The notes under the pieces were generated by a model. The model worked only from the letters and a program-made list of their open reading frames with translations. It made no database searches and was not told the DNA's origin. 64,000 nt of DNA from Oscillospiraceae bacterium (GTDB lineage Bacteria > Bacillota > Clostridia > UMGS1840 > HGM11507). The stretch spans positions 4,858 through 68,857 of the forward strand of contig SVKB01000011.1 of assembly GCA_015068665.1 (NCBI GenBank), read 5' to 3'. Position numbers and translations under genes: made by a program. Below are positions 5,449-62,978 of the stretch, piece by piece (the first letter of the stretch is position 1; each line of letters opens with the position of its first letter).

Positions 5449-5745
5449 AATGAAATAAATCCTTTCAGGATTTGTGAAATACCCTTCGGGCGTGAAATAT
5501 TGCTTCGCAATATGAAATACGCCTTCGGCGTGTGATAAAGGATTTATTTTATTTCACAGAAAACTTTAGTTTTCTATTTCACAATTTACGAAGTAAATTA
5601 TTTCATATCAACGAAGTTGATATTTCATTAAATATTGACAATTCCACCTGTATGAAATATTGCTTCGCAATATGAAAAGGCACTAAACAAAAATTGTTTA
5701 GTGCCCGTAAGCCCGCAGGCGTATAAATAGATACGTCAAGGGTTT
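5449..5745. repeat. TGAAAT/ATTTCA dyad bead array plus R-like hairpin
   Basis: The word TGAAAT occurs at 5451, 5475, 5493 and 5513 (degenerate TGATAA at 5533), each followed by a different small hairpin (AAATCC..GGATTT, CCCTTCGGG, ATTGCTTCGCAAT, ACGCCTTCGGCGT). ATTTCA then occurs at 5551, 5576, 5600 and 5623 with other hairpins. The 25-nt TGAAATATTGCTTCGCAATATGAAA is duplicated at 5653. Confidence 0.8.
5674..5705 (-). terminator. Probable intrinsic terminator of typA
   Basis: 12-bp perfect stem GGCACTAAACAA/TTGTTTAGTGCC (5679-5705), followed on the minus strand by TTTTC. Confidence 0.55.
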
Positions 5746-5767
5746 TTTAGGTTCAATATACGTATTT

Positions 5768-7591
5768 TTACGCTTTTTGTGCTTTATTTCTTGCCTTTGC
5801 TCTTAAATCGCTGTTTAAGATTTTCTTTCTTAATCTTATATTCTCGGGTGTGATTTCCACCAGCTCGTCATCAGCTATAAATTCAAGGCACTGCTCTAAG
5901 CTTAAAACATCGTGAGGAGTGAGTCTTAAGGCATCGTCCGAGCCGGAGGCACGGGTATTTGTAAGCTGTTTTTTCTTGCAGACATTAAGCACAATATCCT
6001 CAGCCTTGGCATTTTCGCCAACAACCATTCCCTCATAAACCTTAACACCGGGGCCGATAAAGAGTCTGCCTCTGCCCTGGGCATTGAATAAGCCGTAGGT
6101 GATGCTTTCCCCGTCCTCCCAGGCAATGATTGAGCCTCTTGTTCTTCCGGGGATATCCCCTTTATGCTCTTCATAGCCTATAAGAATGGAGTTCATAATA
6201 CCGTTACCCTTGGTGTCGGTTAAAAATTCATTACGGTAGCCGATAAGACCACGGGAAGGAATTTTAAATTCAATTCTTGTGTAGCCGTTTGGATTGGCTG
6301 CCATATTAATCATTTCACCCTTACGGGAGCCAAGCTTTTCAATAACGCTTCCCACATATTCCTCGGGAACATCAACAATAAGGTGCTCAACAGGCTCACA
6401 TAAAACGCCCTTAAGCTCCTTCATAATGATAACCGGCTTGGAAACCTGAAATTCAAAGCCTTCTCTTCTCATAGTTTCAATTAAAATAGAAAGATGAAGC
6501 TCGCCACGCCCCGAAACCTTAAAGGAATCGGCACTGTCAGTCTCCTCAACCCTTAAGGAAACATTGGTTTCTGTTTCCCTGAACAGTCGGTCTCTTAAAT
6601 GACGGGAGGTAACGAAGGTTCCCTCTCTTCCCGCGAAGGGACTGTTATTTACAATAAAGTTCATGGAAATTGTAGGCTCGTCAACCTCAATTACCGGTAA
6701 CGGGTCAATATTTGAGGTGGTACAAAGGGTTTCACCAATGTTGAAATCGCCAAGACCTGCTATACAAATGATTTCACCTGCACTAACCGTTTCGGTTTCC
6801 ACTTTTTTAAGACCGCTGTAAGTGTAGATTCTGCCCGTTTTGGCAGTTTTAACCGAGCCGTCCTTTTTGCATATAGCAACCTGCTCGTTAACCGATACAG
6901 TACCTCTTCTTACCTTGCCGACTGCAATTTTACCCACATATTCATCATAGTCAATATTCGATACAAGCATCTGGAAGGATTCGTTATCCTTGCCCGAAGG
7001 AGCAGGAACATAATCCACGATGGTATCAAAAAGAGGCTGAAGATTTTCCGTTCTTTCGTTAAAATCAAAGGTTGCATAGCCCTCACGGGAGGAGGCATAA
7101 ATAATGGGAAAGTCAATCTGCTCATCGCTTGCCTCAAGGTCAATGAACAAATCAATTACCTCATCAACAACATCATTGGGTCTTGCATCCTTCTTATCAA
7201 TTTTATTTACAACCACAATAGGCTTTAAATCAAGCTCAAGAGCCTTTTTAAGAACAAAACGGGTCTGGGGCATAGCGCCTTCAAAGGCGTCAACCAGAAG
7301 AACAACTCCTTCAACCATACCGAGAACACGCTCAACCTCACCGCCGAAATCCGCATGGCCCGGTGTATCAACAATATTGATTTTAATATCCTTGTACATA
7401 ACCGAGGTGTTTTTGGAAAGAATGGTTATGCCTCTTTCACGCTCTAAATCGTTAGAGTCCATAACCCTGTCCTCAACCTGCTCGTTTGCTCTGAAGGTAC
7501 CGCTTTGCTTAAGCATCTCGTCAACCATAGTGGTTTTACCGTGGTCAACGTGAGCAATTATGGCTATATTTCTTATCTTTTTATCACTCAT
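5768..7591 (-). CDS. typA: Translational GTPase TypA/BipA
   Basis: 607 aa. IRNIAIIAHVDHGKTT G1 motif, DTPGHADF, NKID. Length and C-terminal domain typical of BipA. Confidence 0.95.
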   Translation of the reverse strand: MSDKKIRNIAIIAHVDHGKTTMVDEMLKQSGTFRANEQVEDRVMDSNDLERERGITILSKNTSVMYKDIKINIVDTPGHADFGGEVERVLGMVEGVVLLVDAFEGAMPQTRFVLKKALELDLKPIVVVNKIDKKDARPNDVVDEVIDLFIDLEASDEQIDFPIIYASSREGYATFDFNERTENLQPLFDTIVDYVPAPSGKDNESFQMLVSNIDYDEYVGKIAVGKVRRGTVSVNEQVAICKKDGSVKTAKTGRIYTYSGLKKVETETVSAGEIICIAGLGDFNIGETLCTTSNIDPLPVIEVDEPTISMNFIVNNSPFAGREGTFVTSRHLRDRLFRETETNVSLRVEETDSADSFKVSGRGELHLSILIETMRREGFEFQVSKPVIIMKELKGVLCEPVEHLIVDVPEEYVGSVIEKLGSRKGEMINMAANPNGYTRIEFKIPSRGLIGYRNEFLTDTKGNGIMNSILIGYEEHKGDIPGRTRGSIIAWEDGESITYGLFNAQGRGRLFIGPGVKVYEGMVVGENAKAEDIVLNVCKKKQLTNTRASGSDDALRLTPHDVLSLEQCLEFIADDELVEITPENIRLRKKILNSDLRAKARNKAQKA

Positions 7592-7606
7592 AAATTTCCT
7601 TCTTCC

Positions 7607-7642
7607 TAAAATTATCCTGTGTTAATTAAAACACAGGATAAT
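7607..7642 (-). terminator. Intrinsic terminator downstream of ispH-S1 gene
   Basis: ATTATCCTGTGT-loop-ACACAGGATAAT 12-bp stem, followed on the minus strand by TTTTAGG. Confidence 0.65.
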
Positions 7643-7658
7643 CGTGAAAATTATAATT

Positions 7659-11398: not shown

Positions 11399-11872
11399 AA
11401 CCAGAAGTCAGGTGCGAAGGAAGGCAAGCATGACATATAAATGCAGAATTCAGAGTGCAGAATGCAAAATGATATGCCGCAGGCGGCATAGTGAATTGCA
11501 CCTTACGGTGCGTGAATTGTTATCTATTCGATAACATGAATTGATTTTTACAAATCATGAATTGTTGACTTATGTCAACATTAAGGATAGGACGGATATG
11601 CCATTCGGCATCCGTCCTTTTCTCGTTCCGCAGGAACATATCGAGTGCGAAGCACATATCGAGCAATTTTAATTGCATATCGAGTTTTGCCTTGGCAAAA
11701 CATATCGAAAATCCGAAGGATTTATATCTTATATCTCATCCCTCCTTTTCTTGTTCCGAAGGAACATATCGAGTGCGAAGCACATATCGAGCAATTTTAA
11801 TTGCATATCGAGTTTTGCTTTAGCAAAACATATCGAAAATCCGAAGGATTTATATCTTATATCTCATCCGCC
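11399..11872 (+). repeat. C composite repeat (AGGAA/TGCAGAAT words, TGAATTG bead array, P hairpin, tandem pair of CATATCGAG bead arrays)
   Basis: Starts at the tetR stop codon. TGAATTG occurs 4 times (11492-11570), separated by hairpins CACCTTACGGTG, TTATCTATTCGATAA, ATTTTTACAAAT and TTGACTTATGTCAA. P hairpin at 11589-11618 is followed by TTTTCTCG. The same composite recurs at 39831, 42364, 52326(-) and 62644(-). Confidence 0.85.
11618..11872 (+). repeat. Two tandem CATATCGAG bead arrays (period 128 nt)
   Basis: Each copy is hairpin TTCCNNNGGAA, CATATCGAG, TGCGAAGCA, CATATCGAG, CAATTTTAATTG, CATATCGAG, TTTTGCYTTRGCAAAA, CATATCGAA, AATCCGAAGGATT, then the tail ATATCTTATATCTCATCC. The first CATATCGAG is at 11637 in copy 1 and 11765 in copy 2. 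Confidence 0.85.
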
Positions 11873-12160
11873 AGCTATCGCTGACACCTGTCTCGTTGCG
11901 ACTCAGTCACGGCTCGGCTCTGACAATTCACAGGATTGTCATTCACTACCTCGCTGACGCTTCGCTACCTCATTAAGAAGGCTGTGGCGTCGGTTCTTTT
12001 TTAATACTGTAGGGCGTGGCGACTCGACACGCCGATATAAAATTACAAATTAAACTGTGCGAAGCACAATATCACTTTCAAATTCCCTGCTTGTGACAGT
12101 ATAAGACAAAACTACCCGAAGAAGAGAAAACAAACCTCTTTTTCGGGTAGTAATTTTTAT
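11873..12160. repeat. Mixed hairpin modules (partial V module, GGCGTG..CACGCC hairpin, 15-bp stem hairpin 12103-12150)
   Basis: CCAGCTATCGCTG and AGAAGGCTGTGGCG are shared with 27130-27195 in inverse orientation. CTACCCGAAGAAGAG/CTCTTTTTCGGGTAG is a long stem followed by a T-rich run. Confidence 0.6.
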
Positions 12161-12163
12161 ATA

Positions 12164-12316
12164 GTGATATTCTTTGCTGCGCAAAGAGTGATATGATTGC
12201 CGACGGCATTCGTGATATTAAAACCTACGGTTTTAGTGATATTTTATTCGCCTTTTAAAACTCGCTAAGCGAATAACACCCGGTGTTAGCCGAATATCAC
12301 TGCGTAGCAATATCAC
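12164..12316. repeat. GTGATAT/ATATCAC dyad bead array
   Basis: GTGATAT at 12164, 12188, 12212 and 12236, each followed by a different hairpin. Then ATAACAC at 12273 and ATATCAC at 12294 and 12310. Confidence 0.8.
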
Positions 12317-12384
12317 TCGCCGCAAGGCGAATAAAACTGCCCAAGTGTCCTTAGGAACACTTGGGCAAAGGCAGACACTTTTTT

Positions 12385-14829: not shown

Positions 14830-14951
14830 TTTTAAACCTCTTTTGTTCTTATTAATCAACCAACCGACAACAATGAAAAAGCCTGTCTTTAAGCGGTTGA
14901 GGAGAGATAACTAAATTTTATGCTATTTATGGCGTTTTGTCAAGTATTATG

Positions 14952-15611: not shown

Positions 15612-15640
15612 AGATTATGAAAAATGCCTGTAAAATATGA
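15612..15640 (-). promoter_or_regulatory. Possible sigma-E type promoter of spoIIM
   Basis: The minus strand reads TCATATT, 14 nt, CATAATCT, resembling the mother-cell sigma-E consensus (ATATT / CATACA-T). A weak call. Confidence 0.3.
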
Positions 15641-15647
15641 ATAAAAA

Positions 15648-15673
15648 GGGGCTGTAAATTTATTTACAGCCCC
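15648..15673 (-). terminator. Terminator hairpin GGGGCTGTAAAT-TT-ATTTACAGCCCC at the 3-prime end of S1
   Basis: 12-bp stem followed on the minus strand by TTTTTAT. The same hairpin occurs at 20147, 25006 and 53475. Confidence 0.7.
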
Positions 15674-15925
15674 TAAAACAATTCAGAGGGGATAGGAAAA
15701 AATCTTCAGAATGGATAAACTTAGCCAAAATCTTTGATTTTGGGTCACCCGAAGGCGTATTAGATACGTCGAGTGGCTAAGTTTATTCATAACCAAAAAC
15801 TTAAATTTTAAAGATTTTTCTAAAATCTTTACCTCTTTAATGGATAACTTGATAAGTTTCTCTATCAAAATCGTTGATACATCTTGTTTTTGGTGGTCTG
15901 GAGTTTTTTTACATTCCCGTTTTTA
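15674..15925 (-). repeat. S element copy 1 (body), 3-prime UTR of the 1291-aa gene
   Basis: Near-identical to 25032-25282 and inverse to 19870-20146. Contains nested hairpins (outer GGATAAACTTAGCC/GGCTAAGTTTATTC, AAAATCTTTGATTTT, CGTATTAGATACG, AGATTTTTCTAAAATCT, ACCAAAAAC..GTTTTTGGT). Confidence 0.85.
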
Positions 15926-15928
15926 ATA

Positions 15929-18900
15929 TTATTTTCCGATAAGAGCAAGCTCCTTAATATTCAGCCAGTAGTTAACAGAGTTACCCTTACCTACAATCTT
16001 TAAGTATCTTCCGGTTGCGTCAACCTTGAAGGTCTCAAAGTCTGTGGTTGCGCCTGAGGATTTTACATCCTTTGAAACTAAAGTCATATTATCCTTATCA
16101 TCACCCACATAAAGGTCAAAGGTATACACTCTCTTATCTCCTTGATGGAACATAAGATAGAGTTCTGATATATTCTTTTTGCTTCCAAGGTCTATTATTC
16201 CGTATGCCCCATCAGGCTTTGATTCGTCATAGGCAACACCCCAGCTTGTAGAAACTGTATTATCCACGGTGTTATCAATAATTGAGCCTGCGCCGTCATC
16301 CCCTGACTGAATAAGGTCGTAAATATCCAGTTCACCCGAAAGACCGTGAGGAGCAGGGAATCTTAAGCCTACTGCTCTTATGGTTACAATCTTTCTTACA
16401 TCATTCCAGCCAACCTCACAGCCGAAGGATTCAGAAATAAATCTTACCGGAACAACGAAACGACCGTCCTTAATCATTGCAGGAACATCTAAGGTAACGG
16501 GAGCACCGTTTACATAAGCGGTGGTGTTATTCTTGGTTATCTTAACCTCGGTTTCATCCTTTTTCGAGGTTGCGGTTTCAGTTGCCGCATCCCACATAAC
16601 CTCAGCACCGATTGCTTCGAAAATTGCACGCATCGGAACTAATGTTCTTCCGTTTTCGATAAAGGGATCAACATCGGATTCAAGCTGAAGATTATTAACG
16701 AAAACAGTTACCTTTGGTTCAGCTGTTGCCAAAAGCTTCTTTTCATATTCATCGTAGGTCAGTCTCGGGTCGTTAATAAGGAGAGTTGTTTTGGAAGAAG
16801 GATAGATACTCTGTAAGTATTCGGGATTACCGTTTTCCTTACCTACAGTAATGAATCTGTCCGCATTCTTAACACCCTCAACGCCGCCTATTGTCTGTGT
16901 TGCATAGATTTTATGAACGCCCTCATTAAGCAGTATTGTATATTCAAATTCATTGGTTTCGGGCTTAAGTGTTGCATTGTATGCCACATCGTCAACATAA
17001 ATTGTAACAGCAGTTGCACCCAGCTGATAAAGACCTGAAATTTTAACCTCTTTCACATCGGTTTTCTTATCACTCTTCGGATATACAATAACAGGAGCAT
17101 TAGGTCTCGCATTCTTTATGGAGCCGGTTATTCTTTCAGCAAGCTGTGCCTTATATAAGGAACGCGGCTCAACGGGAGTAAATTCAGCTTCCTTGTACGA
17201 ATCACCTACAAAAGGAGTTCCCTCCTTGGTTACAAAATGAGAATCCTTTGCATTATAGAATTCGGTTGTACGGTATATCTTTTTATAAGAGTTAACGTTT
17301 GACGTCTTCATATTAACTGAAGCTGCATCCTCATAAATACCCCATGCACCAACTAAAAAGTTCTGATAAGTATCAGGAACATCGTGAGCAACAATTGTAG
17401 AAGCAAGTGAGTTCCATACAAGTGAAGATGCCGCTGACCAGCCCTGGGATTTTGCAGTACCGTAAATACCTCTGTTTGCAAGAGCAATAAAGCCCTTTGA
17501 ACCGTTATTTATATGGAAAAGATTATCGTATAATACACCGGTTGACCAGGTTCCGTGAGTTTCGGATGCGGTATTTGAAGAGTCAACAACATTATCAACA
17601 TAAGCAATAGGGCCTGTAACACTTAAGCTTGTTTCAAAGTCGTGACGCCCGTCATAGGAATAGTTACCTGTGTATAAAACCTGCTCTGCGGAGGTTGATG
17701 CCGCAAAGGAATATCTTCTTGAACCTGCAACTGTGGAAACCGGATCTAAGCTTGAACAGCCCACAACCGAAATCTGCTTTGCATTTGCAGCAGATGACAC
17801 CAGTGACATATAGAAATGCTTTGCAGAAACATTTCTTACAAATATGTTTTTGGCATTGCTTATGGAAATAGCAGTTGTAGCGTGCTGTTCGTCACTAGGA
17901 TCGCCGTTATAGTAGGATACTATTCTTAAGTTATCAAGACCGGCGTTCTTAATCTTGCCTGAATCGTCAGTTTTATAAATATAGCTTTGTATATACTTCT
18001 TATCTGCGGGCAGGAACAGAGAATAATTAAGAGTAATTTCCGTACCGTTTATTGCGGTGATTATTCTCTCGCTCTTAGAGTCGAAATCTCCGCCTTTCCA
18101 GGAGGTATCGTCATCATAAACATTTAAAATCTTATCCATACCGATTGCCTTTGAAAGCTCAATGGTAGTCGGATTATAAACGGTAATATGGTCGCCAACT
18201 TTAAAGTTTTTGATATCCTCAGAGGACAGATTGATGGTTTTTGTACCTGCCTTGATATAATCATCGGTTATATTCGCACGCTCACCCTTTATAACAGGTG
18301 CCGAGCCCGTAATTCTTACAGGAATGTACTGAACCGGATCCTTTGCATAAAGAATTGTTCCGGTGGGGCCCTGACCTTCACCAAGAAGAACAATACCGCT
18401 CTTCAGACGGATACCCGATTTATTGATATTATAAGTACCTGCCTTAAGCTTTATAACCTTCATGCTGTCGTCAGGGGACTCATTATATACCTTGTCAATT
18501 GCCGACTGAAGCATACTTGTATCGTCAGCGGCACCTGTTGGAGAAAGCTCCATTGCAACAGGAAGCTTTGTAACATCGGGAAGCTCACATTCACCCATGT
18601 AGAAGCCTGCATAGGAAAAATCGCCGATTGTGTCGCCCTGCTCATTATAGGTATTATAAACAAGCTTATCGCCTACAGGAGCAACAAGTGTTGCAGGAAC
18701 AGGCTGAACCTGTTTCGGAGCAATATACGGATGCTCTACCTTTGGCGCAATATATATACCCTTTACGAATTTGAAATTATCAACATACCCGGTCTGAAGG
18801 GATGCCTTAACGGTATTAAGATATATTGATGCATACACCGCACCTGCAGGAGCAGTCTGGGAATTTGTTACGGTTGTCCAGGTTTTGTGTTCACCTTTGG

Positions 18901-19869: not shown

Positions 19870-20146
19870 AAAAATGGGGATGTAAAAAAACTCCAGACCA
19901 CCAAAAACAAGATTTATCAACGATTTTGATAGAGAAACTTATCAAATTAGCCGTCGAAGAGCTATCCGACGGCTAACTATTAAAAAGGTAAAGATTTTAG
20001 AAAAATCTTTAAAATTTAAGTTTTTGGTTATGAATAAACTTAGCCGCTCGACGTATCTAATACGCCTTCGGGTGACCCAAAATCAAAGATTTTGGCTAAG
20101 TTTATCCATTCTGAAGATTTTTTCCTATCCCCTCTGAATTGTTTTA
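19870..20146 (+). repeat. S element copy 2 (body), inverted relative to copies 1 and 3
   Basis: Reverse complement of the S1/S3 body. Carries an additional 22-nt TA-flanked palindrome at 19951-19972. Confidence 0.85.
19951..19972. mobile_element. Minimal TA-flanked palindromic insertion (fused MITE ends)
   Basis: TA-GCCGTCGAAGAGCTATCCGACGGC-TA. It is absent from the equivalent position of S1 and S3 (which have a single TTA there). Its sequence equals the outer part of the 52536-52809 MITE terminal repeats. Confidence 0.5.
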
Positions 20147-20182
20147 GGGGCTGTAAATAAATTTACAGCCCCATTTTTTATA
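20147..20182 (+). terminator. Terminator hairpin of S2 (GGGGCTGTAAAT-AA-ATTTACAGCCCC + ATTTTTTAT)
   Basis: The hairpin plus T-tract reads on the plus strand, convergent with the 1560-aa gene whose stop is at 20186. Confidence 0.6.
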
Positions 20183-24930: not shown

Positions 24931-25005
24931 TTGGATTATTATTCGGTGGATTGGACTATCGTGTAAATTACAAATTACCAACGTCCTTCATTTCTCAATA
25001 AAAAA

Positions 25006-25031
25006 GGGGCTGTAAATTTATTTACAGCCCC
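25006..25031 (-). terminator. Terminator hairpin at the 3-prime end of S3 (terminates rny transcript)
   Basis: GGGGCTGTAAATTTATTTACAGCCCC followed on the minus strand by TTTTTTATT. Confidence 0.7.
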
Positions 25032-25282
25032 TAAAACAATTCAGAGGGGATAGGAAAAAATCTTCAGAATGGATAAACTTAGCCAAAATCTTTGATTTTG
25101 GGTCACCCGAAGGCGTATTAGATACGTCGAGTGGCTAAGTTTATTCATAACCAAAAACTTAAATTTTAAAGATTTTTCTAAAATCTTTACCTTTTTAATG
25201 GTTAATTTGATAAGTTTCTCTATCAAAATCGTTGACACATCTTGTTTTTGGTGGTCTGGAGTTTTTTACATTCCCGTTTTTA
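25032..25282 (-). repeat. S element copy 3 (body), 3-prime UTR of rny
   Basis: Begins 1 nt after the rny stop codon. Its shadow ORF 25041..25238 differs from the S1 shadow ORF 15683..15868 at only 2 of 60 codons. Confidence 0.85.
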
Positions 25283-25283
25283 T

Positions 25284-26840
25284 TTATTTTGCATAATCTA
25301 CAGCCCTTGTTTCTCTTACGACATTAACCTTAATCTGTCCCGGATATTCAAGCTCGCTTTCGATTTTTTCTGCGATTTCTCTTGCAACCACAATCATTGT
25401 TTCATCATTGATATCATCAGGCTTAACCATAATTCTGATTTCTCTGCCTGCCTGGATTGCAAAGGATTTTTCAACGCCCTTGAAGGAGGATGAAATTTCC
25501 TCAAGCTTCTCTAAACGTTTAACATAGGTTTCAATATTTTCTCTTCTTGCGCCCGGTCTTGCAGCGGAGATTGCATCAGCTGCCTGAACGATGCATGCAA
25601 TAACTGTTTCAGGCTCTGCATCACCGTGATGGGACATAATAGAGTTTAAAACGACCTGATCCTCATGATATTTCTTGGCAATATCCGCACCAATCATAAC
25701 GTGAGAGCCTTCTATTTCGTGAGTTGAAGCCTTGCCTATATCGTGAAGTAAGCCTGCTCTTTTAGCCATAACAACGTCAACGCCTAATTCTGCGGCAATA
25801 ATTCCCGATATATGAGCAACTTCAATTGAATGCTTAAGAACATTCTGACCGTAGCTTGTTCTGTACTTAAGTCTTCCGAGAAGCTTGATAAGCTCGGGGT
25901 GAAGACCATGAACGCCAACCTCGAAGGTAGCGGATTCACCGGCTTTTTTAATGGTAGCATCAACCTCTTTCTGAGCCTTTTCAACCATTTCTTCAATTCT
26001 TGCAGGATGAATACGGCCGTCCGAGATAAGCTTTTCAAGTGCAAGACGGGCAACCTCACGTCTGACAGGATCGAAGGAGGAAAGGATAACTGCTTCGGGA
26101 GTATCGTCAATGATAACATCAACCCCTGTTGCGGTTTCTAAGGTTCTTATGTTTCTTCCTTCTCTTCCGATAATTCTTCCTTTCATTTCATCGCCGGGAA
26201 GGGATACTGTGGAAACTGTAACCTCAGCAACGTGATCGGATGCACATCTCTGAATAGCAGATGTGATAATGTTTCTTGCCTTTTCGTCAGCAACCTCTTT
26301 TGTTTCTTCTTCAATTTCCTTGATTTTAACAGCAGCGGCAACTCTGACTTTTTCTTCGATATTTTTCAGTAGGTATGTTTTTGCTTCTTCAGCGGTCAGT
26401 CCCGAAATCTTTTCAAGAAGCTCCAACTGTCTTCTCTGGATTTCAGCAACATATTCTTCTTTTTCTTCTAACTGCTTCTGCTTGTCTTTTAAATTTTCTT
26501 CTCTTGACTCAAGGTTTTCAAGCTTTTTATCAAGATTTTCTTCCTTTTGCAGAAGTCTTTTTTCCTGTTTTTGGATTTCTCCGCGACGTTCCTTGATTTC
26601 CTTATCAAGCTCTGATCTGCTCTTATGTATTTCGTCTTTAACCTCTAAAAGCTTCTCTTTTTTCATGTTTTCAACGGTTTTATAAGAGTCGTTAACAATT
26701 CTTTTTGCTTCTTCTTCAGCGCTTTTAATCTGGCTTTCCGCAATCTTTTTACGGTAGGAAATACCGAGTCTGAAAGCTATTAAGCCAACAACCAAAGCAA
26801 CACCGGCGGCGATTCCAATCATTATAAACGGATTATTCAT
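25284..26840 (-). CDS. rny: Ribonuclease Y
   Basis: N-terminal TM helix, long coiled coil, KH domain ([12 protein letters not shown]) and HD domain (HSIEVA...LLHDIGK). Start moved to ATG 26840 (MNNPF) behind GGGAGGTG; the track start at 26909 is an extension. Confidence 0.95.
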
Positions 26841-27129: not shown

Positions 27130-27316
27130 GCGGGAACCGTCGCCACAGCCTTCTCCTTGAGGAGAAGGTGTCAGCGATAGCTGACGGATGAGGTGTAAGA
27201 TATAAATCCCTACGGGATTTTCGATATGTTTTGCTAAAGCAAAACTCGATATGCAATTAAAATTGCTCGATATGTGCTTCGCACTCGATATGTTGCCTTT
27301 CGGCAACGAGAAAAAG
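27130..27316 (-). repeat. CATATCGAG bead array plus V module (inverse orientation on plus strand)
   Basis: The plus strand shows V (GCCTTCTCCTTGAGGAGAAGGTG-TCAGCGATAGCTGA-CGGATGAGGTG, 27148-27195). It is followed by AAATCCCTACGGGATT, TTCGATATG, TTTTGCTAAAGCAAAA, CTCGATATG, CAATTAAAATTG, CTCGATATG, TGCTTCGCA, CTCGATATG, TTGCCTTTCGGCAA. Confidence 0.85.
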
Positions 27317-27344
27317 AACCGACGATAGTAGCATGTCGGTTCTT
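27314..27344 (-). terminator. Intrinsic terminator of the BMP lipoprotein gene
   Basis: AAGAACCGAC-loop-GTCGGTTCTT followed on the minus strand by TTTCTCG, which is also the first word of the bead array. Confidence 0.6.
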
Positions 27345-27372
27345 ACTTCATTTATAATTTGTCATTTGTAAT

Positions 27373-33144: not shown

Positions 33145-33967
33145 AAGTAAAAAGCGTAAAAAAAGCGTTAAAATTCCCCGGACCATGCAAAGCAATATAT
33201 ATATAAAGAAAGCGATGTACTTATTCCGTAATTAAATGTTAAAGGCGCTTGATAAAATAAGGAATAAATCGCAAAGCGATTTATGGAATTAAAAGCTTTG
33301 CATTTTGAACGAAAATCCCCTCTCGATGTATTTAATACACCTTCGGGTGATTTTCGTTCAATCCAAGAAATTTTTCCTGCTTTTCGTTTGATATTGGCGG
33401 CATCGAGCCACCAATATCAAAAAAAGCGTAAAATCAACAAACCATGTAAAGCAAAATAATATAAATAGAAAATGTGTCTGTATCATATACAGGCACATTT
33501 ATTTGTAGTTTACATTACTATATTAAGGTATAAATTTGCAAGCAAATTTATGAATTTAAATGCTTTGCGTTATAAATGAAACCAGCCATCTGAGAGTTAT
33601 CAAAATTCGTTTTTTAAAAAATTCCAACGGAACCTATATCGCTTTAAAATTGTGATTTTTCAAGGCGGAAGGCTTTGGTAATACGAGGTATGCCAAAGGC
33701 GACAACGAAGAAAAAGCCTATTTTTAAGTGATATAGACGGATTTGGATAGCTCTTAGATGGCTGCAGATGTATCTCATACACCTTCGGGTGATTTTCGTT
33801 CAATCCAAGAAATTTTTCTTATCTTTCGTTTGATATTGGCGGCATCGAGCCACCAATATCAAAAAAGCGTAAATTCAACAAACCATGCAAAGCAAAATAA
33901 TATAAATAGAAAATGGGCGTGTCTCAATAAGTGATTTTTCACTCAATCGAGGCAACGCCCTTTGCTT
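33145..33967 (+). repeat. T-unit composite (three T-type units, R junction modules, one embedded MITE)
   Basis: Units start with AAAAAGCGT(T)AAAAT at about 33149, 33421 and 33863. They contain the 14-bp hairpin AAATGTGTCTGTAT-CAT-ATACAGGCACATTT (33470-33500), AAATTTGCAAGCAAATTT, an R junction (33309-33357) and the GCATCGAGCC-loop hairpin (33379-33427, 33826-33870). Confidence 0.8.
33583..33764. mobile_element. MITE-like element with 27-nt terminal inverted repeats (23/27 match)
   Basis: Left end CAGCCATCTGAGAGTTATCAAAATTCG. Reverse complement of the right end CAGCCATCTAAGAGCTATCCAAATCCG. It interrupts an R module (compare the intact copy at 62195-62241). Its interior is homologous in inverse orientation to 52565-52680. 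Confidence 0.55.
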
Positions 33968-38593: not shown

Positions 38594-38935
38594 CCTTCTT
38601 AATGAGGAGAAGGTGTCAGCGATAGCTGACGGATGAGATATAAGATATAAATCCTTCGGATTTTCGATATGTTTTGCTAAAGCAAAACTCGATATGTGCT
38701 TCGCACTCGATATGTTGTCTTGCGACAACGAGACAGGTAGGGGCGTTTATTACCGCCCGAAAGCCCTCCTTGCCTAAAGGAGGGGGGACCGCTTTAGCGG
38801 TGGGAGGATTTTTGAAAAGGTGTAATATAAATCCCTATGGGATTTTCGATATGTTTTGCTAAAGCAAAACTCGATATGTGCTTCGCACTCGATATGTTCC
38901 TTTGGAACTCGATATGTTCCTTCGGAACGAGATAA
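38593..38935 (-). repeat. V module, two CATATCGAG bead arrays (inverse orientation) and a GC-rich W5 module forming the whole aminopeptidase-era spacer
   Basis: V at 38593-38637 overlaps the TAG stop. Array 1 is at 38631-38733 and array 2 at 38821-38935; both lack the CAATTTTAATTG unit. W5 at 38740-38828 equals the inverse of 42621-42700. Confidence 0.85.
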
Positions 38936-38948
38936 AAGGAGAGCTAAA

Positions 38949-39830: not shown

Positions 39831-40281
39831 TTTGAAAATCAGGAATTAGGAATGAAGTAAGGCAAGCATGACATATAAATGCAGAATTCAGAGTGCAGAA
39901 TGCAGAATGATATGCCGCAAGCGGCATAGTGAATTGCACCTTTCGGTGCATGAATTGTTATCAGCTTGATAACATGAATTGATTTTTACAAATCATGAAT
40001 TGTTGACTTATGTCAACATTAAGGATAGGACGGATATGCCCGAAAGTGGTTAATGAATTTAGTTGCAGTATCATATTTCTTTTTATTTAATGGACTACAC
40101 TTCATTACACCTCATCCGAGTTGCTATGCAACCCACCTTCTCCTCAAGGAGAAGGCTTTGGCATCCGTCCTTTTCTCGTTGCCGAAAGGCAACATATCGA
40201 GTGCGAAGCACATATCGAGCAATTTTAATTGCATATCGAGTTTTGCTTTAGCAAAACATATCGAAAATCCCAAAGGGATTT
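39831..40281 (+). repeat. C composite repeat starting at the era stop codon, with P hairpin split by an insertion
   Basis: AGGAAT and TGCAGAAT words, then TGAATTG 4 times. P left arm at 40027-40040 and P right arm at 40160-40171. Complete 5-hairpin CATATCGAG array at 40171-40281. Confidence 0.85.
40041..40159. repeat. 119-nt insertion in the loop of the P hairpin, carrying a V module (40108-40156)
   Basis: Intact P elsewhere reads GGACGGATATGCC-ATTC-GGCATCCGTCC. Here the arms are separated by sequence ending in CACCTCATCCG-AGTTGCTATGCAAC-CCACCTTCTCCTCAAGGAGAAGGC. Confidence 0.7.
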
Positions 40282-40318
40282 AAAAAAAGCGCCAAACGCT
40301 TTCGTTTGGTGCTTTTTA
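40282..40318. terminator. Bidirectional intrinsic terminator (era / 40337 gene)
   Basis: AAAAAAA-GCGCCAAACG-CTTT-CGTTTGGTGC-TTTTT between convergent genes. Confidence 0.7.
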
Positions 40319-41440: not shown

Positions 41441-41551
41441 TCTTTCTCGTTGCCGAAAGGCAACATATCGAGTTCCAAAGGAACATATCGAGTGCGAAGC
41501 ACATATCGAGTTTTGCCTTGGCAAAGCATATCGAAAATCCCAAAGGGATTT
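41441..41551 (+). repeat. CATATCGAG bead array (variant with extra TTCCAAAGGAA unit, lacking CAATTTTAATTG unit)
   Basis: TTTCTCG, TTGCCGAAAGGCAA, w, TTCCAAAGGAA, w, TGCGAAGCA, w, TTTTGCCTTGGCAAAG, CATATCGAA, AATCCCAAAGGGATT (w = CATATCGAG). Confidence 0.85.
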
Positions 41552-41578
41552 AAAAAAAGCACCAATTGGTGCTTTTTT
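41552..41578. terminator. Bidirectional intrinsic terminator (XRE gene / yesL)
   Basis: AAAAAAA-GCACCAATTGGTGC-TTTTTT, a perfect palindrome between convergent genes. Confidence 0.7.
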
Positions 41579-42363: not shown

Positions 42364-42625
42364 GATAATATGCCACAAGTGGCATAATGAATTGCACCTT
42401 GCGGTGCGTGAATTGTTATCAATCTGATAACATGAATTGATTTTTTAAAAATCATGAATTGTTGACTTATGTCAACATTAAGGATAGGACGGATATGCCA
42501 TTCGGCATCCGTCCTTTTCTCGTTGCCGTAAGGCAACATATCGAGTTCCAAAGGAACATATCGAGTGCGAAGCACATATCGAGTTTGCAAGGCAAACATA
42601 TCGAAAATCCCATAGGGATTTATAT
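42364..42625 (+). repeat. C composite repeat, 5-prime truncated (TGAATTG array, intact P hairpin 42486-42515, CATATCGAG array 42515-42625)
   Basis: Same module order as 11476-11750. The array has TTGCCGTAAGGCAA and TTCCAAAGGAA units and lacks the CAATTTTAATTG unit. Confidence 0.85.
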
Positions 42626-42740
42626 TACACCTTTTCAAAAATCCTCCCACCGCTAAAGCGGTCCCCCCCTCCTTTAGGCAAGGAGGGCTTTGCAATGTGC
42701 CTGCCCTTCGGCAAGCACATTATTTTTCTATATATCCCCT
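42626..42740. repeat. GC-rich W5 module and variant long hairpin AATGTGCCTGCC-CTTC-GGCAAGCACATT
   Basis: 42621-42700 is the inverse of 38740-38828. The hairpin at 42686-42718 shares outer stem bases with the AAATGTG..CACATTT hairpin of the T units but has a different inner stem. Confidence 0.65.
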
Positions 42741-42965
42741 GCTTTGCGATTTATTCCTTATTTTATCAAGCGCCTTTAACATTAGTGTTATTCCGTACCT
42801 TGTACGGAGTGATATTTTTGATAAATCAAAAGTGTTATTGAAACCTGACGGTTTCAGTGGTATTTTATCCGCCTTTATTAAGCTGTGCGAAGCACAATAC
42901 CACTGCGCAGCAATATCACTTGCTAACAGCAAATATCACTCGCCGTAAGGCGAATAAAACTGCAA
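42741..42965 (-). repeat. GTGATAT dyad bead array (Q), inverse copy of 62340-62575
   Basis: Shadow ORFs 42720..42932 and 62379..62582 translate identically for about 63 aa, and 42697..42948 versus 62363..62617 for about 68 aa. The DNA is therefore essentially identical. Confidence 0.85.
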
Positions 42966-43262
42966 AGCTCCGCTTTGCAAAGTCCGGGGAATTTTACATC
43001 TTTTTTATGGCGGTGGCTCGATGCCTCCGCCATAAAACGAAAGATAGGAAAAATTTCTTGGATTGGACGAAAATCACCCGAAGGTGTATTAAATACATCG
43101 AGAGGGGATTTTCGTTCAAAATGCAAAGCTTTTAATTCCATAAATCGCTTTGCGATTTATTCCTTATTTTATCAAGTGCCTTTAACATTTAATTACGGTA
43201 TAAGTACATCGCTTTCTTTATATATATTGCTTTGCATGGTCCGGGGAATTTTTACATCTTTC
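42966..43262 (-). repeat. T-type unit, inverse near-copy of 33170-33430, ending 5 nt from the stop of the 904-aa gene
   Basis: Contains an R junction (43067-43115) and a GCATCGAGCC-loop hairpin with an altered but still complementary stem (43003-43037). Confidence 0.8.
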
Positions 43263-51930: not shown

Positions 51931-52325
51931 AAAAGCATTAAAATTCCCCGGACCACGCAAAGCAAAATAATATAAAGAGTAAAATGTGTCTGTATCATAT
52001 ACAGGCACATTTATTTATAGTTTACATTACTATATTAAGGTATAAATTTGCAAGCAAATTTATGAATTAAAAGCTTTGCGTTTTGAACGAAATCAGCCAC
52101 TCGACGTACTTAGTACGCCTTCGGGTTCCACCCCTTCGGGGCTGAATTCGTCCAATCCAAGAAATTTTTTCTGCTTTTCGTTTGATATTGGCGGCATCGA
52201 GCCACCAATATCAAAAAAAGCGTTAAATCGACAAACCATACAGAGCAAAATAGTATAAATAGTAAATGTGTCTGTATCATATACAGGCACATTTTGTTTT
52301 AGTATACATTACTATATTAAGGTAT
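51931..52325 (+). repeat. Two T-type units starting at the stop codon of the AraC-type gene
   Basis: AAAAGCATTAAAATTCCCCGGACCACGCAAAGC. 14-bp hairpins at 51982-52012 and 52264-52294. R junction with an extra CCCCTTCGGGG hairpin at 52087-52151. GCATCGAGCC-loop hairpin at about 52174-52220. Confidence 0.8.
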
Positions 52326-52899
52326 AAATCCTTCGGATTGTCGATATGTTTTGCTAAAGGCAAAACTCGATATGCAATTAAAATTGCTCGATATGTGCTT
52401 CGCACTCGATATGTTGCCTTTCGGCAACAAGAAAAAAGGACGGATGCCGAATGGCATATCCGTCCTATCCTTAATGTTGACATAAGTCAACAATTCATGA
52501 TTTTTTTAAAATCAATTCATGTTATCGAATTGATAGCCGTCGGAGAGCTATCCGAACTCGCCTCAAACCCTTAAAAATAGGCTTTTTCTTTGTTGTCGGT
52601 TTCGATATACCTTGTATTATCAAAACCTTCCGCCTTGAAAAATCACAATTTTAAAGGGTTATAGGTTCTATAAGAATTTTTAAATTAGGAAATTTTTAGA
52701 TAGAATGAGGCAAAAACGCAGGTAATATTTCGGATATTACCGAGGATTTTAACGATATTATATCAAAAATTTACAATTTAAAAACGAGTTCGGATAACTT
52801 TCCGACGGCTACCAATTCACGCACCGCAAGGTGCAATTCACTATGCCGCTTGCGGCATATCATTCTGCATTCTGCACTCTGAATTCTGCATTTATAATT
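52326..52899 (-). repeat. C composite repeat (inverse), co-oriented with and abutting the stop of the HAD gene, interrupted by a MITE
   Basis: On the plus strand: a complete 5-unit CTCGATATG array at 52326-52437, P at 52437-52467, then the CAATTCA array interrupted at 52536-52809, then ATTCTGCA words up to 52899. Confidence 0.85.
52536..52809. mobile_element. MITE-like element, ~25-nt terminal inverted repeats, flanked by TA
   Basis: TA-GCCGTCGGAGAGCTATCCGAACTCG ... CGAGTTCGGATAACTTTCCGACGGC-TA (2 mismatches). It is inserted in the loop/arm of the GTTATC..GATAAC hairpin, which is intact at 62838-62856 and 11519-11536. No ORF inside. Confidence 0.6.
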
Positions 52900-53457: not shown

Positions 53458-53474
53458 ATTAAACCTCATAAAGA

Positions 53475-53500
53475 GGGGCTGTAAATAAATTTACAGCCCC
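53475..53500 (-). terminator. Terminator hairpin GGGGCTGTAAAT-AA-ATTTACAGCCCC downstream of the M23 peptidase gene
   Basis: Same 26-nt hairpin as at the S-element ends. The minus strand continues TCTTTAT. Confidence 0.55.
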
Positions 53501-59150: not shown

Positions 59151-59232
59151 GGGAGGCAAAAACGCAGGGAGTATCAGGATATTTCCGAGGCTTTTAACGA
59201 AGTAATATCGGAAATTTACAATTTTAAAGAAG
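59151..59232 (+). repeat. Solo fragment homologous to the interior of the 52536-52809 MITE
   Basis: GAGGCAAAAACGCAGG..CCGAGG(C/A)TTTTAACGA..AAATTTACAATTT aligns with 52706-52788. No terminal repeats seen here. Confidence 0.5.
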
Positions 59233-61174: not shown

Positions 61175-62037
61175 ACTTTAAAAGAGCAAAAACAATACTT
61201 ATAGTTATCTTCCTGTTCGTCAATATATTTTTAATTGTAATTAACAATCTTTTCTATGAATCGGATATAACAGTTGATACAAAAACAGTTATCAGCATTC
61301 TGTCAAAATCGGGAATCTCGCTTAATGAGGATATTTTAAAGGAATATCCGGTCTCGGTTCCAAGAGTTGAAGTTGAAAATGTTGCTGCCGATGAAAATAA
61401 GCTTGCTACCCTGCTTTTAGGTAAAGGCTATAACAGCTCCAAGGAGCATTACTACTCGGGCGAGGGTGCAGCCCTTACCGTCAGTGAGCTTTCGGTTGAC
61501 TACAAGGTGGTTGAGCCCAAGGATAAATCCTTTAAGGATATAAGCCCCTTAAATGCAGGCAATAAGGCACTGAAAAAGCTTAATAAAAAGGGAATTGGTG
61601 AATCGGCACTTGAGGTTGAGAATATTTCCGATAACGGAAACAATAACTACTATGTAACTCTTTCTTATAAGTTTGAGGAATATCCCCTTTTCAATAATCA
61701 TCTCTATGTAACTGTTACCGACAGGGGAATTCTTGCAATGAAGGGTACTGTTATTGATTTTAATGAAATAAAAAACGAGGATTATAAAATAATCCCCGCC
61801 GCAAACATACTTCTCGAGCTTCCTTCCAACCCCGATTTAAAGAATGTGGATAAAAATCCTGAAGTAACGGGCATCCGACTGGGATATTTCCTGCCTATGG
61901 GTAAAGGGGAAGCATCAATCTATGCAATTCCCGCCTATGAGATTGAGATAAGCAATAAAAAAATTTATTACTATGATGCCAGGGAAAATATAAGCTCGGA
62001 TGTAATATTGTTGGGAAGCATAAACGCCATCAAGTAA
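61171..62037 (+). CDS. YycI-like regulatory accessory protein
   Basis: 288 aa. GTGA overlap with the preceding gene. The N-terminus NFKRAKTILIVIFLFVNIFL resembles YycI. Confidence 0.55.
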   Translation: MNFKRAKTILIVIFLFVNIFLIVINNLFYESDITVDTKTVISILSKSGISLNEDILKEYPVSVPRVEVENVAADENKLATLLLGKGYNSSKEHYYSGEGAALTVSELSVDYKVVEPKDKSFKDISPLNAGNKALKKLNKKGIGESALEVENISDNGNNNYYVTLSYKFEEYPLFNNHLYVTVTDRGILAMKGTVIDFNEIKNEDYKIIPAANILLELPSNPDLKNVDKNPEVTGIRLGYFLPMGKGEASIYAIPAYEIEISNKKIYYYDARENISSDVILLGSINAIK

Positions 62038-62317
62038 AAAAGCGTAAAAATTACCCAGACCACGCAAAGCAAAATAATATAAATAGTAAATGTGTCTGTA
62101 TAATATACAGGCACATTTATTTATAGTTTACATTAATAAATTAAGGTATAAATTTGCAAGCAAATTTATGTTTTTAAATGCTTTGCGTTATAAATGAAAA
62201 ACACCTCTCGATGTATCTCATACACCTTCGGGTGTTTTTCATTTATTCCAGGAAATTTTTCCTGCTTTTCGTTTGATATTGGCGGCATCGAGCCACCAAT
62301 ATCAAAAAAAGCGTTAA
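62038..62317 (+). repeat. T-type unit starting at the yycI-like stop codon
   Basis: AAAAAGCGTAAAAATT... 14-bp hairpin at 62088-62118, AAATTTGCAAGCAAATTT, R junction at 62195-62241 (outer stem TGAAAAAC/GTTTTTCA), GCATCGAGCC-loop hairpin at about 62264-62312. Confidence 0.8.
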
Positions 62318-62575
62318 AATTCCCCGGACTTTGCAAAGCGGAGCTTTGCAGTTTTATTCGCCTTACGGCGAGTGATATTTGCTGTTAGCAAGTGATATTG
62401 CTGCGCAGTGGTATTGTGCTTCGCACAGCTTAATAAAGGCGGATAAAATACCACTGAAACCGTCAGGTTTCAATAACACTTTTGATTTATCAAAAATATC
62501 ACTCCGTACAAGGTACGGAATAACACTAATGTTAAAGGCGCTTGATAAAATAAGGAATAAATCGCAAAGCAAAAT
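62318..62575 (+). repeat. GTGATAT dyad bead array (Q)
   Basis: GTGATAT at 62372 and 62392, GTGGTAT at 62408. Then ATAACAC at 62473, ATATCAC at 62496 and ATAACAC at 62520. All intervening hairpins differ from one another. Confidence 0.85.
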
Positions 62576-62643
62576 AATATAAAGAGTAAAATGTGTCTGT
62601 ATCATATACAGGCACATTTATTTATAGTCTATATTAATATATT
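62576..62643 (+). repeat. Partial T unit with 14-bp hairpin (62589-62619)
   Basis: AAAATAATATAAAGAGTAAAATGTGTCTGTATCATATACAGGCACATTTATTTATAG, as in 51965-52020. Confidence 0.75.
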
Positions 62644-62978
62644 AAGATATAAATCATTCGGATTTTCGATATGTTTTGCTAAAGCAAAACTCGATATGCA
62701 ATTAAAATTGCTCGATATGTGCTTCGCACTCGATATGTTCCTTCGGAACGAGAAAAGGACGGATGCCGAATGGCATATCCGTCCTATCCTTAATGTTGAC
62801 ATAAGTCAACAATTCATGATTTGTAAAAATCAATTCATGTTATCAAGCTGATAACAATTCATGCACCGCAAGGTGCAATTCACTATGCCACTTGCGACAT
62901 ATCATTTTGCATTCTGCACTCTGAATTCTGCATTTATATGGCTTGCCGGCCTTCATTCCTCATTCCTGATTTTAAAAT
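62644..62978 (-). repeat. C composite repeat (inverse), uninterrupted reference copy
   Basis: On the plus strand: 5-unit CTCGATATG array, P at 62755-62785, CAATTCA 4 times, ATTCTGCA words, CATTCCT words. Confidence 0.85.

Follow-up and report, generated by a model that had tools for sequence, protein, structure and literature searches.

This report concerns the repeat DNA that fills intergenic gaps in a stretch of 64,000 nucleotides (hereafter the window, whose numbering is used throughout) of contig SVKB01000011.1 from the Oscillospiraceae bacterium assembly GCA_015068665.1, and in particular the arrays of small hairpins separated by a constant 'word' that form its core. The window has a G+C content of about 40% and contains core chromosomal genes, including those for MreB, a U32 peptidase, BipA, IspH-S1, RNase Y, RNase J and Era, as well as genes for components of ABC transporters and for a number of large surface proteins. 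Five clustered tRNA genes (4977-5413, +) are closed by an intrinsic terminator at 5414-5447. The sole recombinase seen is a XerC/D-like integrase (13954-14859), and no transposase gene was found with Pfam among the 20 largest open reading frames (ORFs) of the window. The host is an uncultured gut member of the Clostridia; the best Era relative in a scan of a metagenome collection is 70% identical and the remainder 48-56%. Only one locus with extended DNA similarity was found (L006; loci on other contigs are given L numbers), a 'Clostridia bacterium' metagenome-assembled genome (MAG), which matches the tRNA cluster including its terminator at 85% over ~500 nt (the terminator stretch alone at ~85% over 61 nt). 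The T-run of the tRNA operon is directly followed by a word-hairpin array in either genome, with the word GTGAAAT in the window and the TCGATATG word (a CTCGATATG array) in L006.

Intergenic repeat DNA filling about a tenth of the window is real and reused. An all-versus-all blastn comparison of the window with itself returned 248 non-self matches, which together span 6,561 bp, or 10.3% of the window, and merge into 22 blocks, nearly all of which coincide with the fourteen intergenic gaps that the original prediction had described as built of reused modules. Outside these gaps are found three short paired matches (14862-14906, 16556-16630 and 43457-43531) and a fourth short block (53468-53523), which lies in a small intergenic gap absent from that list. 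The density of the repeats is as had been claimed, with the proviso that the predicted share of about 12% is slightly high, because the fourteen intervals sum to 6,981 bp, or 10.9%; one of them, 59151-59232, is not a module mosaic and contains only a fragment of a miniature inverted-repeat transposable element (MITE). Reuse in both orientations and nesting, also predicted, are illustrated by MITE copies within an array (52533-52817) and within an S unit (33613-33754), and by a 195-nt GTGATAT block that is present at 42781-42975 (-) and 62336-62530 (+), inverted, 100% identical and 19.4 kb apart. This pair would be a ready substrate for inversion of the intervening segment, or may reflect gene conversion or copying in the very recent past. 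Several of the ORFs called in the gaps proved, as anticipated, to be shadows of the repeats, as is the TTG start assigned to Era (38856). The doubts attached to the original prediction, that the repeats might be assembly artefacts or be confined to the window, are dispelled because independent assemblies reproduce two of the gaps and other contigs carry copies: contigs of two other samples (L113, L117) show the 986-bp gap 11399-12384 in identical form, an independent assembly contig (L328) has the 933-bp gap 42335-43267 base for base, and more, non-identical copies lie on other contigs of the same organism (L329 5425-6179, L334, L330). Several modules match the genomes of other species at 80-97%.

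Mapping of reference modules back onto the window (Table 1) replaces the single superfamily that had been proposed with at least six sequence-unrelated families that recombine, nest and share sub-modules. These are the word-hairpin arrays, which use four words; a ~290-bp composite (composite A; five copies, 87-97.6% identity); a ~275-bp S unit (four loci, plus additional partial units); a ~300-bp element (E300; three copies, 96.7-98.6% identity); the small P and V modules (four and two copies in the window, respectively); and a classical inverted-repeat MITE. The arrays were sought with a detector that requires a 7-mer to recur at least three times at a spacing of 14-36 nt, using block-shuffled sequence as the control. 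It returned 19 arrays, compared with a mean of 0.3 per shuffled window; 17 are true word-hairpin arrays, and the two at 7686 and 27384, both within coding sequence, appear to be spurious.

The core module of an array comprises three to five small hairpins (stems of 4-7 bp, loops of 3-4 nt) of variable sequence, split by a constant word of 7-9 nt, with the number of words per array varying between copies (3, 4 or 5). The four word families are (G/A)TGAAAT, at 5448-5690; GTGATAT, at 12160-12340, 42781-42975 and 62336-62530; (G/C/A)TGAATTG, in five copies; and CTCGATATG, in eleven arrays of the window. As read from the gap sequences, the core GA[AT][AT]T is common to all four. The Rfam model of the Gut-1 RNA (RF01706) matches 5448-5523 (+) over its full length (1-77) with 70.2 bits (E = 5.5e-12; gathering score 50), and this is the only array that passes the threshold for membership; the GTGATAT arrays (46.5-46.6 bits) and the remainder of the 5448-5690 region give matches below it (Table 1). 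The first hairpin of the 5448 array (AAAUCC..GGAUUU) and the loop types agree with the consensus of the model, and Gut-1 relatives in L244, L284 and L293 keep three hairpins despite changed stem sequences. For the CTCGATATG and TGAATTG arrays no Rfam match was obtained at E <= 1, either in the window or in other genomes, and the S, E300, P and V modules likewise match no Rfam family at E <= 1, save for the sub-threshold matches of E300 described below. Judged by these scores, one array is a true Gut-1 RNA motif, and those with the words GUGAUAU, UGAAUUG and CUCGAUAUG (the RNA forms) are putative, undescribed relatives. The grammar of the repeats had been thought unlike any named family; Gut-1 is itself a three-hairpin array with UGAAAU words, and a clear match to a described non-coding RNA family, one whose function is not known, exists for one array and not for the others. 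The core is thus partly known as Gut-1, the remainder being an undescribed extension of it. No paper on tandem hairpin arrays or extragenic repeats of this kind in Clostridia or Ruminococcus was found in the literature.

Table 1. Repeat modules mapped in the window.
Feature	Position	Strand	Remarks
Gut-1 array, forward half	5448..5545	+	Words GTGAAAT/ATGAAAT; fold z-score -6.9
Outer stem of 5448 array	5455-5464, 5541-5550		AAATAAATCC pairs with GGATTTATTT; array starts right after tRNA-operon terminator
Inverted Gut-1-like array	5546..5640	-	ATTTCAC on +; makes up a forward/reverse pair with 5448-5545; RF01706 41.3 bits at 5546-5630 (-); downstream of BipA terminator (5706-5678, -; terminator scan)
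Lone Gut-1 unit	5645..5683	+	Core 5653-5677 equals 5493-5517; RF01706 29.5 bits at 5609-5683
Composite A copy 1	11434..11724	-	95.5% over 291 nt to 62650-62940; between convergent TetR and MscL genes; terminator-like site 11598-11611 (+)
Parts of composite A copy 1	11490-11585; 11594-11625; 11625-11735		TGAATTG array; central GC-rich hairpin + TTTTCT; CATATCGAG array
Tandem second CATATCGAG array	11737..11852	-	97.4% over 116 nt
P module, partial copy	11855..11894	-	Two small hairpins, CCTTCTCC..GGAGAAGG and GTCAGC..GCTGAC; P is 96% identical to L042, another species
GTGATAT arrays	12160..12340	.	Forward half 12164-12250 (+), inverted half 12268-12339; RF01706 46.6 bits at 12268-12339 (-); 81% over 157 nt to L075
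E300 copy 1	15640..15942	+	96.7% over 304 nt to 24997-25296; directly downstream of 1291-aa gene (-); hairpin + T-run at far end, read on - strand
E300 copy 2, inverted	19870..20181	-	93.8% and 98.6% in two pieces; MITE1 terminal-repeat remnant inserted at ~19943-19973
E300 copy 3	24997..25296	+	Downstream of RNase Y gene; terminator-like site 25032-25005 (-)
P module + CTCGATATG array + hairpin	27142..27345	+	P 27142-27200; array 27215-27314; hairpin ~27318-27345, the predicted Bmp gene terminator (-); 89% over 66 nt to arrays in five other genomes
S units, head to tail	33161..33915	+	33161-33434; 33422-33581 + 33767-33876; partial 33863-33915; MITE1 interrupts second (~33595-33765); first begins 17 nt past RNase J stop codon; terminator-like site 33470-33500 (+)
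P + CTCGATATG array + V + second CTCGATATG array	38589..38940	+	38589-38645; 38648-38733; 38728-38830; 38840-38940; arrays 84-89% identical to arrays in L067, L055, L076
Composite A copy 2	39872..40317	-	TGAATTG half 39872-40040; CATATCGAG half 40157-40270; terminator 40284-40317; split by 116-nt insert 40041-40156 containing P module
CATATCGAG array	41443..41575	-	Array 41443-41540; adjoins 250-aa gene terminator 41548-41575
Composite A copy 3 + V + GTGATAT block + S unit	42365..43255	-	42365-42610; 42620-42691; 42781-42975; 42976-43255; RF01706 46.5 bits at 42892-42962 (-); S unit begins just past stop codon of 904-aa gene (-)
S unit + partial S + composite A copy 4	51931..52896	+	51931-52227; 52232-52329; 52325-52526 plus 52810-52896; MITE1 interrupts; terminator-like sites 51982-52012 (+), 52264-52294 (+), 52457-52444 (-)
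MITE1	52533..52817	+	285 bp; ~26-nt terminal inverted repeats TAGCCGTCGGAGAGCTATCCGAACTC; TA at both flanks; inside hairpin of CAATTCA array
Solitary E300-type terminator hairpin	53470..53500	.	GGGGCTGTAAAT..ATTTACAGCCCC; between M23 peptidase and HAD genes
MITE1 internal fragment	59153..59228	+	Sole repeat of its gap; 83% over 77 nt to MITE1 positions 175-251
S unit + GTGATAT block + partial S + composite A reference copy	62038..62940	+	62038-62335; 62336-62530; 62563-62654; 62650-62940; RF01706 46.5 bits at 62349-62419; terminator-like sites; S unit starts at stop codon of upstream gene

The placement of the modules is directional with respect to the neighbouring genes. The strongest terminator-like sites of the window lie inside the repeats, namely in the S-unit hairpin, the E300 hairpin and the central hairpin of composite A, which is followed by TTTTCT, and the orientation of such sites in the cassettes is the one needed to terminate the upstream gene. 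The S-unit hairpin, AAATGTGTCTGTAT...ATACAGGCACATTT with a T-rich tail, occurs in five copies, all on the + strand after + genes. All four S loci begin 0-17 nt past a stop codon and are always co-oriented with the gene concerned (those for RNase J and an AraC-type regulator, a 288-aa gene ending at 62037 and, inverted, a 904-aa gene), and E300 follows three consecutive genes of the - strand. Composite A is found between convergent genes at 11.4, 40 and 52.5 kb. In this module the CTCGATATG array and the TGAATTG array face each other across the strong central hairpin, and the ends ATATAAAT/ATTTATAT close the whole. A transcript from either side would cross a 'sense' array before the central hairpin; the copy at 62650-62940 folds as a closed multi-hairpin structure with a z-score of -6.7. 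The outer end of composite A contains a short, hairpin-free repeat, TGCAGAAT, three times in ~30 nt (11440-11470, 39878-39908, 52862-52895 and 62905-62935), and similar (T/A)GCGGAAT runs are found ahead of arrays in L004, L025 and L089. In the window as in three other contigs, the T-run of a terminator directly precedes the Gut-1 array. A simple consensus scan predicted no promoters for the arrays of the window. The second CTCGATATG array at 38840-38940 would form the 5' leader of Era, because its last hairpin is directly followed by a likely ribosome-binding site (AAAGGAG) and an ATG; the TTG start called for Era falls within this array, and gene calls on other contigs give a protein of 293 aa.

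Arrays of the same construction are widespread beyond this organism. A scan of one genome per species for three CATATCGAG words with free gaps between them gave at least 112 loci, nearly all in animal-gut Clostridia MAGs and including Oscillospiraceae, Acutalibacteraceae, Ruminococcaceae, Christensenellaceae and Feifaniaceae. Among the 212 distinct spacers between TCGATATG words in the 112 listed loci and the window, 183 form a hairpin over their full length, from the first base (the word-final G) to the last (the C before the next word), compared with 15% of shuffled spacers, and 95% of the stem pairs (912/957) are Watson-Crick. The words are invariant across these MAGs while the hairpin sequences change freely: some hairpins are recognisable between species (TGC-loop-GCA, followed by TTGC(C)-loop-(G)GCAA), and others have been replaced outright. 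In many species the complete CTCGATATG element consists of TCGATAT-AAATCTC-loop-GAGATTT, three units of TCGATATG plus hairpin, CGAGATTTATATC, and three to four inverted words (CATATCGA) with hairpins of their own. Its 5' arm (A) can pair with an adjacent copy (B) or a distal copy (C), and all three covary (AAATCTC, AAATCCC, CAATCCC, AAATTCC, AAATCCT). For 14 full elements of other genomes, RNAalifold predicts that the forward words pair with the inverted words to give four helices of 7-8 bp, from which the hairpins project as side branches. Compensatory changes are seen in 16 of the 56 predicted pairs, all 16 within hairpins, the words of the predicted word helices being invariant. The same plan is seen in the window at the Gut-1 region, with a forward array, a closing stem and an inverted array. 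No consistent loop-loop complementarity that might support kissing between the two halves was seen in the few elements inspected by eye. The combination of covarying hairpins and unchanging words argues for an RNA.

The right-hand end of complete CTCGATATG elements (L070 2500-2790; L053, L012, L042, L112, L045) is a conserved CAAAAA-N(4-9)-TGGCATCTAAATTGTTCACTGATTCTATAAT, the last hexamer of which resembles a -10 box; in L045 this module is the promoter region of a second, tandem element. The module may thus face outward and act as promoter of the gene that lies downstream. A sigma-54 promoter was considered and rejected, since TGGCAT-N5-TTGT resembles a -24/-12 element yet has T consistently at the critical C.

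Further indications of strand come from the left-hand end. On 23 contigs (two from one MAG), 23 arrays follow a canonical sigma-A promoter, TTGaaa-17 nt-(TG)nTATAAT, then 7 nt and a 5'-proximal hairpin, GATTTCATC-gaa-GATGAAATC, and none does so on the opposite strand; the extended -10 sequence TGnTATAAT is likewise distributed 16 to 0 by strand. The spacer between the -35 and -10 boxes is not conserved, as expected of a functional promoter and not of a repeated sequence. Also confined to the promoter strand is a hairpin after the first inverted word, GUUUUGAGC-AAA-GCGAAAAC (alignment columns ~115-135), in which conserved tandem G.A/A.G mismatches are flanked by covarying pairs (L006, L082, L087, L102 and others); it is absent from the arrays of the window and may be a protein-binding motif. 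On the most economical reading, the arrays in other species would be bona fide promoter-driven RNAs. They are co-oriented with the upstream ORF in 67 cases and anti-oriented in 28, and convergent gaps hold 17 arrays and divergent gaps 9. The loops are strongly polar, being T..C on the TCGATATG strand 82 times and G..A once (p = 2e-23). On the word-complement strand (CATATCGA, ATTTCAC, ATATCAC, CAATTCA) they take the form GNA or GNNA with a closing C-G pair, and purines are not preferred at position 3. The complementary UNC and UNAC loops are also known in RNA. In two reports, GNA and GNNA loops closed by C-G are described as a class of extraordinarily stable DNA mini-hairpins (PMC13037366, PMC3201870). 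Loop sequence alone was set aside as an ambiguous guide to RNA or DNA.

With regard to mobility, the combination of terminal inverted repeats and a target-site duplication that defines a MITE is found only in MITE1. Its ends match in reverse complement (52528-52560 and 52785-52811), and its TA flanks were identified by eye in comparison with the uninterrupted composite at 62840. Besides the copies in the array and in the S unit at ~33595-33765, the window holds an ends-only remnant (19943-19973) and internal fragments (59153-59228 and 14862-14906), and no parent insertion sequence. Classical transposition evidently does occur here, as MITE1 has inverted ends, TA flanks and nested insertions. 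For the arrays, composite, S and E300 no target-site duplication, empty site or parent insertion sequence could be defined. Look-ups of exact proteins for orthologous empty sites gave the same strain or contigs that switch locus in the repeats, and that of the HAD protein was empty. Within repeats, contigs of this organism frequently break off or switch partner. In L114, L115, L329, L330 and L334, compared with 11399-12384 and 40000-43300, the same flanking proteins have different neighbours past the repeat: TetR adjoins either a creatininase or the locus at 40.3 kb, and the 250-aa gene adjoins Fic, the Fic junction being present in three samples. Either recombination or rearrangement between strains, or assembly chimerism at 100% identical repeats, would account for this switching. 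A protein partner encoded in cis was rejected: clustering of 709 ORFs around arrays in the 112 listed loci gave only unrelated housekeeping families, none enriched beside the arrays.

A phage or plasmid origin was rejected for 62038-62940 (S unit, GTGATAT block and composite; E300, P and V not in the query), for which blastn against 50,697 phage and 72,556 plasmid records gave no match. Viral contigs rarely carry true arrays: none of the 6 IMG/VR matches to the CATATCGAG pattern has hairpin spacers, and among 119 matches listed for the GTGAAAT pattern only L244 and L284 are clear Gut-1 arrays, with L293 also carrying one.

The original account of Gut-1 (RF01706; Weinberg et al., 2010, PMC2864571) drew on 43 human-gut sequences and presented a probable non-coding RNA, without organism, context or function. 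The likeness lies in three short hairpins separated by single-stranded (G)UGAAAU. The description is of a stand-alone candidate small RNA (sRNA) without repeat context, whereas here Gut-1 is one member of a multi-word, genome-wide repeat system, and the array of the window has, in addition, an inverted partner array, an outer closing stem and a position right after a terminator.

The analogy to bacterial interspersed mosaic elements (BIMEs) and BOX elements drawn in the original prediction holds in three respects, namely modularity with a variable number of units, complementary outer arms, and an extragenic location, mostly at gene 3' ends by terminators. With repetitive extragenic palindromes (REPs) and BIMEs, the repeats of the window share extragenic palindromic units in both orientations and high copy, mainly at gene 3' ends and in convergent gaps, and a link to termination. 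In E. coli, REP/BIME elements are also associated with protection of the upstream mRNA. In contrast, REPs are conserved, ~35-nt imperfect palindromes with a 5' GTAG, tied to the REP-associated tyrosine transposase (RAYT), whereas the window hairpins are of 9-17 nt and free sequence, the units are direct repeats, and the constant part is a linker word of 7-9 nt unrelated to GTAG. No RAYT (IS200/IS605-like Y1) was found among the 20 largest window ORFs, and none is enriched near arrays in the 112 listed loci. The likeness to BOX is an architectural analogy only: variable internal units between complementary arms in a dispersed, intergenic, non-coding element with a stable predicted RNA fold, the outer A:C stem of the arrays covarying across species. 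BOX units are conserved and of ~45-60 bp, compared with 18-25 nt for a word and its variable hairpin, and the hosts are unrelated; the Rfam scan of the window gave no BOX-related match, no comparison with BOX sequences themselves having been made. MITE1, with its ~26-nt terminal inverted repeats, TA flanks and nested insertions, is like other MITEs, and the arrays and composite share with these the short outer inverted repeats (ATATAAAT...ATTTATAT), but the conserved part of the arrays, the words, is internal and not terminal. A CRISPR array was ruled out, as the repeats are of 7-9 nt (versus 23-50), the spacers are self-complementary hairpins of 9-17 nt, and the scanned ORFs contain no cas domain. 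TIGR-Tas stem-loop arrays have two ~9-nt spacers flanked by box C/D in a palindromic stem and an adjacent tas (Nop-domain) gene (bioRxiv 10.64898/2026.09.09.750476); these too were ruled out, since loops of 3-4 nt leave no room for a spacer and no Nop-domain protein is found among the scanned ORFs.

The reading to which we lean, tentatively and at a little under an even chance, is that the repeats are BIME/BOX-like structured-RNA cassettes at transcript ends, specific to this lineage and amplified and shuffled within it. It is proposed because the arrays, which here have no consensus promoter, travel with terminator hairpins after stop codons or between convergent genes. Structured repeat modules would have been amplified and shuffled into mosaic cassettes; the outer stem could close an array, and in a forward array with an inverted one behind it the words of the two could pair, forming a ladder of short helices from which the hairpins branch off. 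The cassettes would supply or back up terminators and give adjacent transcripts structurally stable ends; their spread would be due to recombination or to a mobilising activity, of unknown kind, provided in trans. Directly observed are the repeats, their conserved hairpins, the asymmetry between strands, the promoters of other species and the terminator-like sites within the cassettes. Transcription in this organism, an effect on RNA stability, the mode of spread of the modules and the existence of something that recognises the invariant words are what we infer; recognition by a sequence-specific factor and pairing between forward and inverted arrays are guesses. Several observations weigh against the proposal. 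One copy of E300 runs against the orientation of the gene upstream of it, as do ~30% of arrays with respect to theirs, and the arrays at 5448, 52341 and 62666 lie downstream of one to three predicted terminators, so that their transcription would need read-through or unrecognised promoters. A protective role alone does not explain single-stranded words that are invariant across Clostridia families. Among the stem pairs that are not Watson-Crick (6 G-T, 5 A-C and 34 other), G-U wobble is no commoner than other mismatches, a pattern that would be unusual in an RNA helix under selection and that suits DNA palindromes just as well. In both halves of forward/reverse elements, moreover, the polarity of the loops goes with the orientation of the word, so that one transcript carries both loop types and a simple argument from RNA stability fails to explain it. 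Action as RNA, with the strand reading GUGAAAU or CUCGAUAUG, is nevertheless favoured, because the promoter and the one-strand G.A hairpin are weighed above the wobble and loop-polarity facts, which are left without explanation by it.

These facts bear differently on the competing accounts. If the arrays were genes for trans-acting sRNAs or leader RNAs that display one word (core GAWWU) to an RNA-binding protein or an RNA, as a sponge or scaffold, the hairpins would merely bring the words side by side and the copies in this genome would be amplified or decayed genes. The invariance of the words over many Clostridia MAGs while hairpins change freely, the canonical promoter and 5' hairpin on 23 arrays, the GA[AU][AU]U core common to the four words and the classification of Gut-1 as an sRNA in Rfam (PMC2864571) all fit this account, which we nonetheless consider unlikely. 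No candidate binding protein was found, nor any conserved protein neighbour in the 112 listed loci, the arrays of the window are without a consensus promoter in the simple scan, and uniform words within an array would not be required by one factor of loose specificity; furthermore, 10 of 10 inspected promoter-bearing arrays run into a co-oriented downstream gene, mostly without a terminator, which is leader-like and less typical of a free sRNA. Almost purely Watson-Crick stems without an excess of wobble pairs, and the tracking of word orientation by loop polarity, would instead suit single-stranded DNA, in which word and hairpin would be the substrate of a REP/RAYT-type or IS200/IS605-type HUH transposase or related nuclease and the repeats REP/BIME-like mobile or recombination elements; the loop class of the word-complement strand, stable in DNA according to the two reports mentioned above, the near-identity and dispersal of copies, and the start of arrays right by other hairpins (a terminator or the 5' hairpin), as in some hairpin-targeting elements, agree with this. 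RAYTs, however, recognise a conserved REP hairpin, and hairpin sequence varies here. Given also that no HUH or other transposase is found among the 20 largest window ORFs (Pfam) or near arrays in the 112 listed loci, that no target-site duplication or empty site was found, and that promoters and the tandem G.A hairpin, on one strand only, point to a transcript, we regard a DNA substrate as improbable.

Equally improbable in our estimate is that the repeats have no host function, one hairpin arm templating correction of the other, an intergenic location being merely tolerated and terminator activity incidental. The extreme, lineage-specific density (17 arrays in 64 kb, versus 0 true arrays in 863 kb around Era genes of related gut Clostridia), the nesting and shuffling of modules, the branching of same-organism contigs at repeats and the activity of a true MITE among them are what a selfish or neutral element would produce. 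Such an element would not be expected to keep its word and some hairpins (TGC-loop-GCA; TTGCC-loop-GGCAA) together with promoters between distant Clostridia, to be placed directionally, as S is in 4 of 4 cases at a stop codon and gene co-oriented, or to show so strong a loop-polarity bias. A bolder proposal, which we hold to be doubtful, is that the arrays are a widespread, undescribed class of structured RNA of gut Clostridia, with Gut-1 as the first part of it to have come into view: a sigma-A promoter would give a ~200-nt RNA in which four forward and four inverted 8-nt words zip into a ladder of stacked four-way junctions, each with two hairpins of free sequence, one of these having the conserved tandem G.A; a dedicated factor would read the words, and in this genome the RNA would have escaped as a self-amplifying repeat that supplies many gene ends.

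Gut-1, in Rfam since 2010 as an orphan motif from human-gut reads, is now placed in a genome, as one of several word-hairpin families. The CTCGATATG family alone extends to more than a hundred species-level gut Clostridia genomes (at least 112 loci), and some of its copies elsewhere own a promoter; promoter, strand, invariant words and the tandem G.A hairpin provide handles for experiment. The organism analysed here offers a natural case of a structured RNA module turned dense repeat, at ~10% of the sequence and with the strongest terminator-like sites beside many housekeeping genes. In practical terms, such repeats break metagenome assemblies, whose contigs end or branch inside them, and generate false ORFs and false start codons, as for Era.

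Two minor observations concern E300 and the genes between the repeats. The terminator-proximal ~90 nt of E300 consist of a C-rich stretch followed by a GGGGCUGU...ACAGCCCC terminator, and E300 could contain a small RNA. Its resemblance to the RsaE/RoxS sRNA (RF01820; 30.7-32.9 bits, E = 0.15-0.42, at 15645-15737 (-), 20083-20175 (+) and 25003-25095 (-)) lies far under the threshold of 79 bits, and membership of that family was ruled out. Large secreted proteins are encoded at 15929-19804, 20186-24868, 40337-41107 and 43268-45982, with Cu_amine_oxidN1 (copper amine oxidase N-terminal-like), CBM_4_9, F5/8 type C and SASA esterase domains, and a repeat cassette follows each of these four genes.

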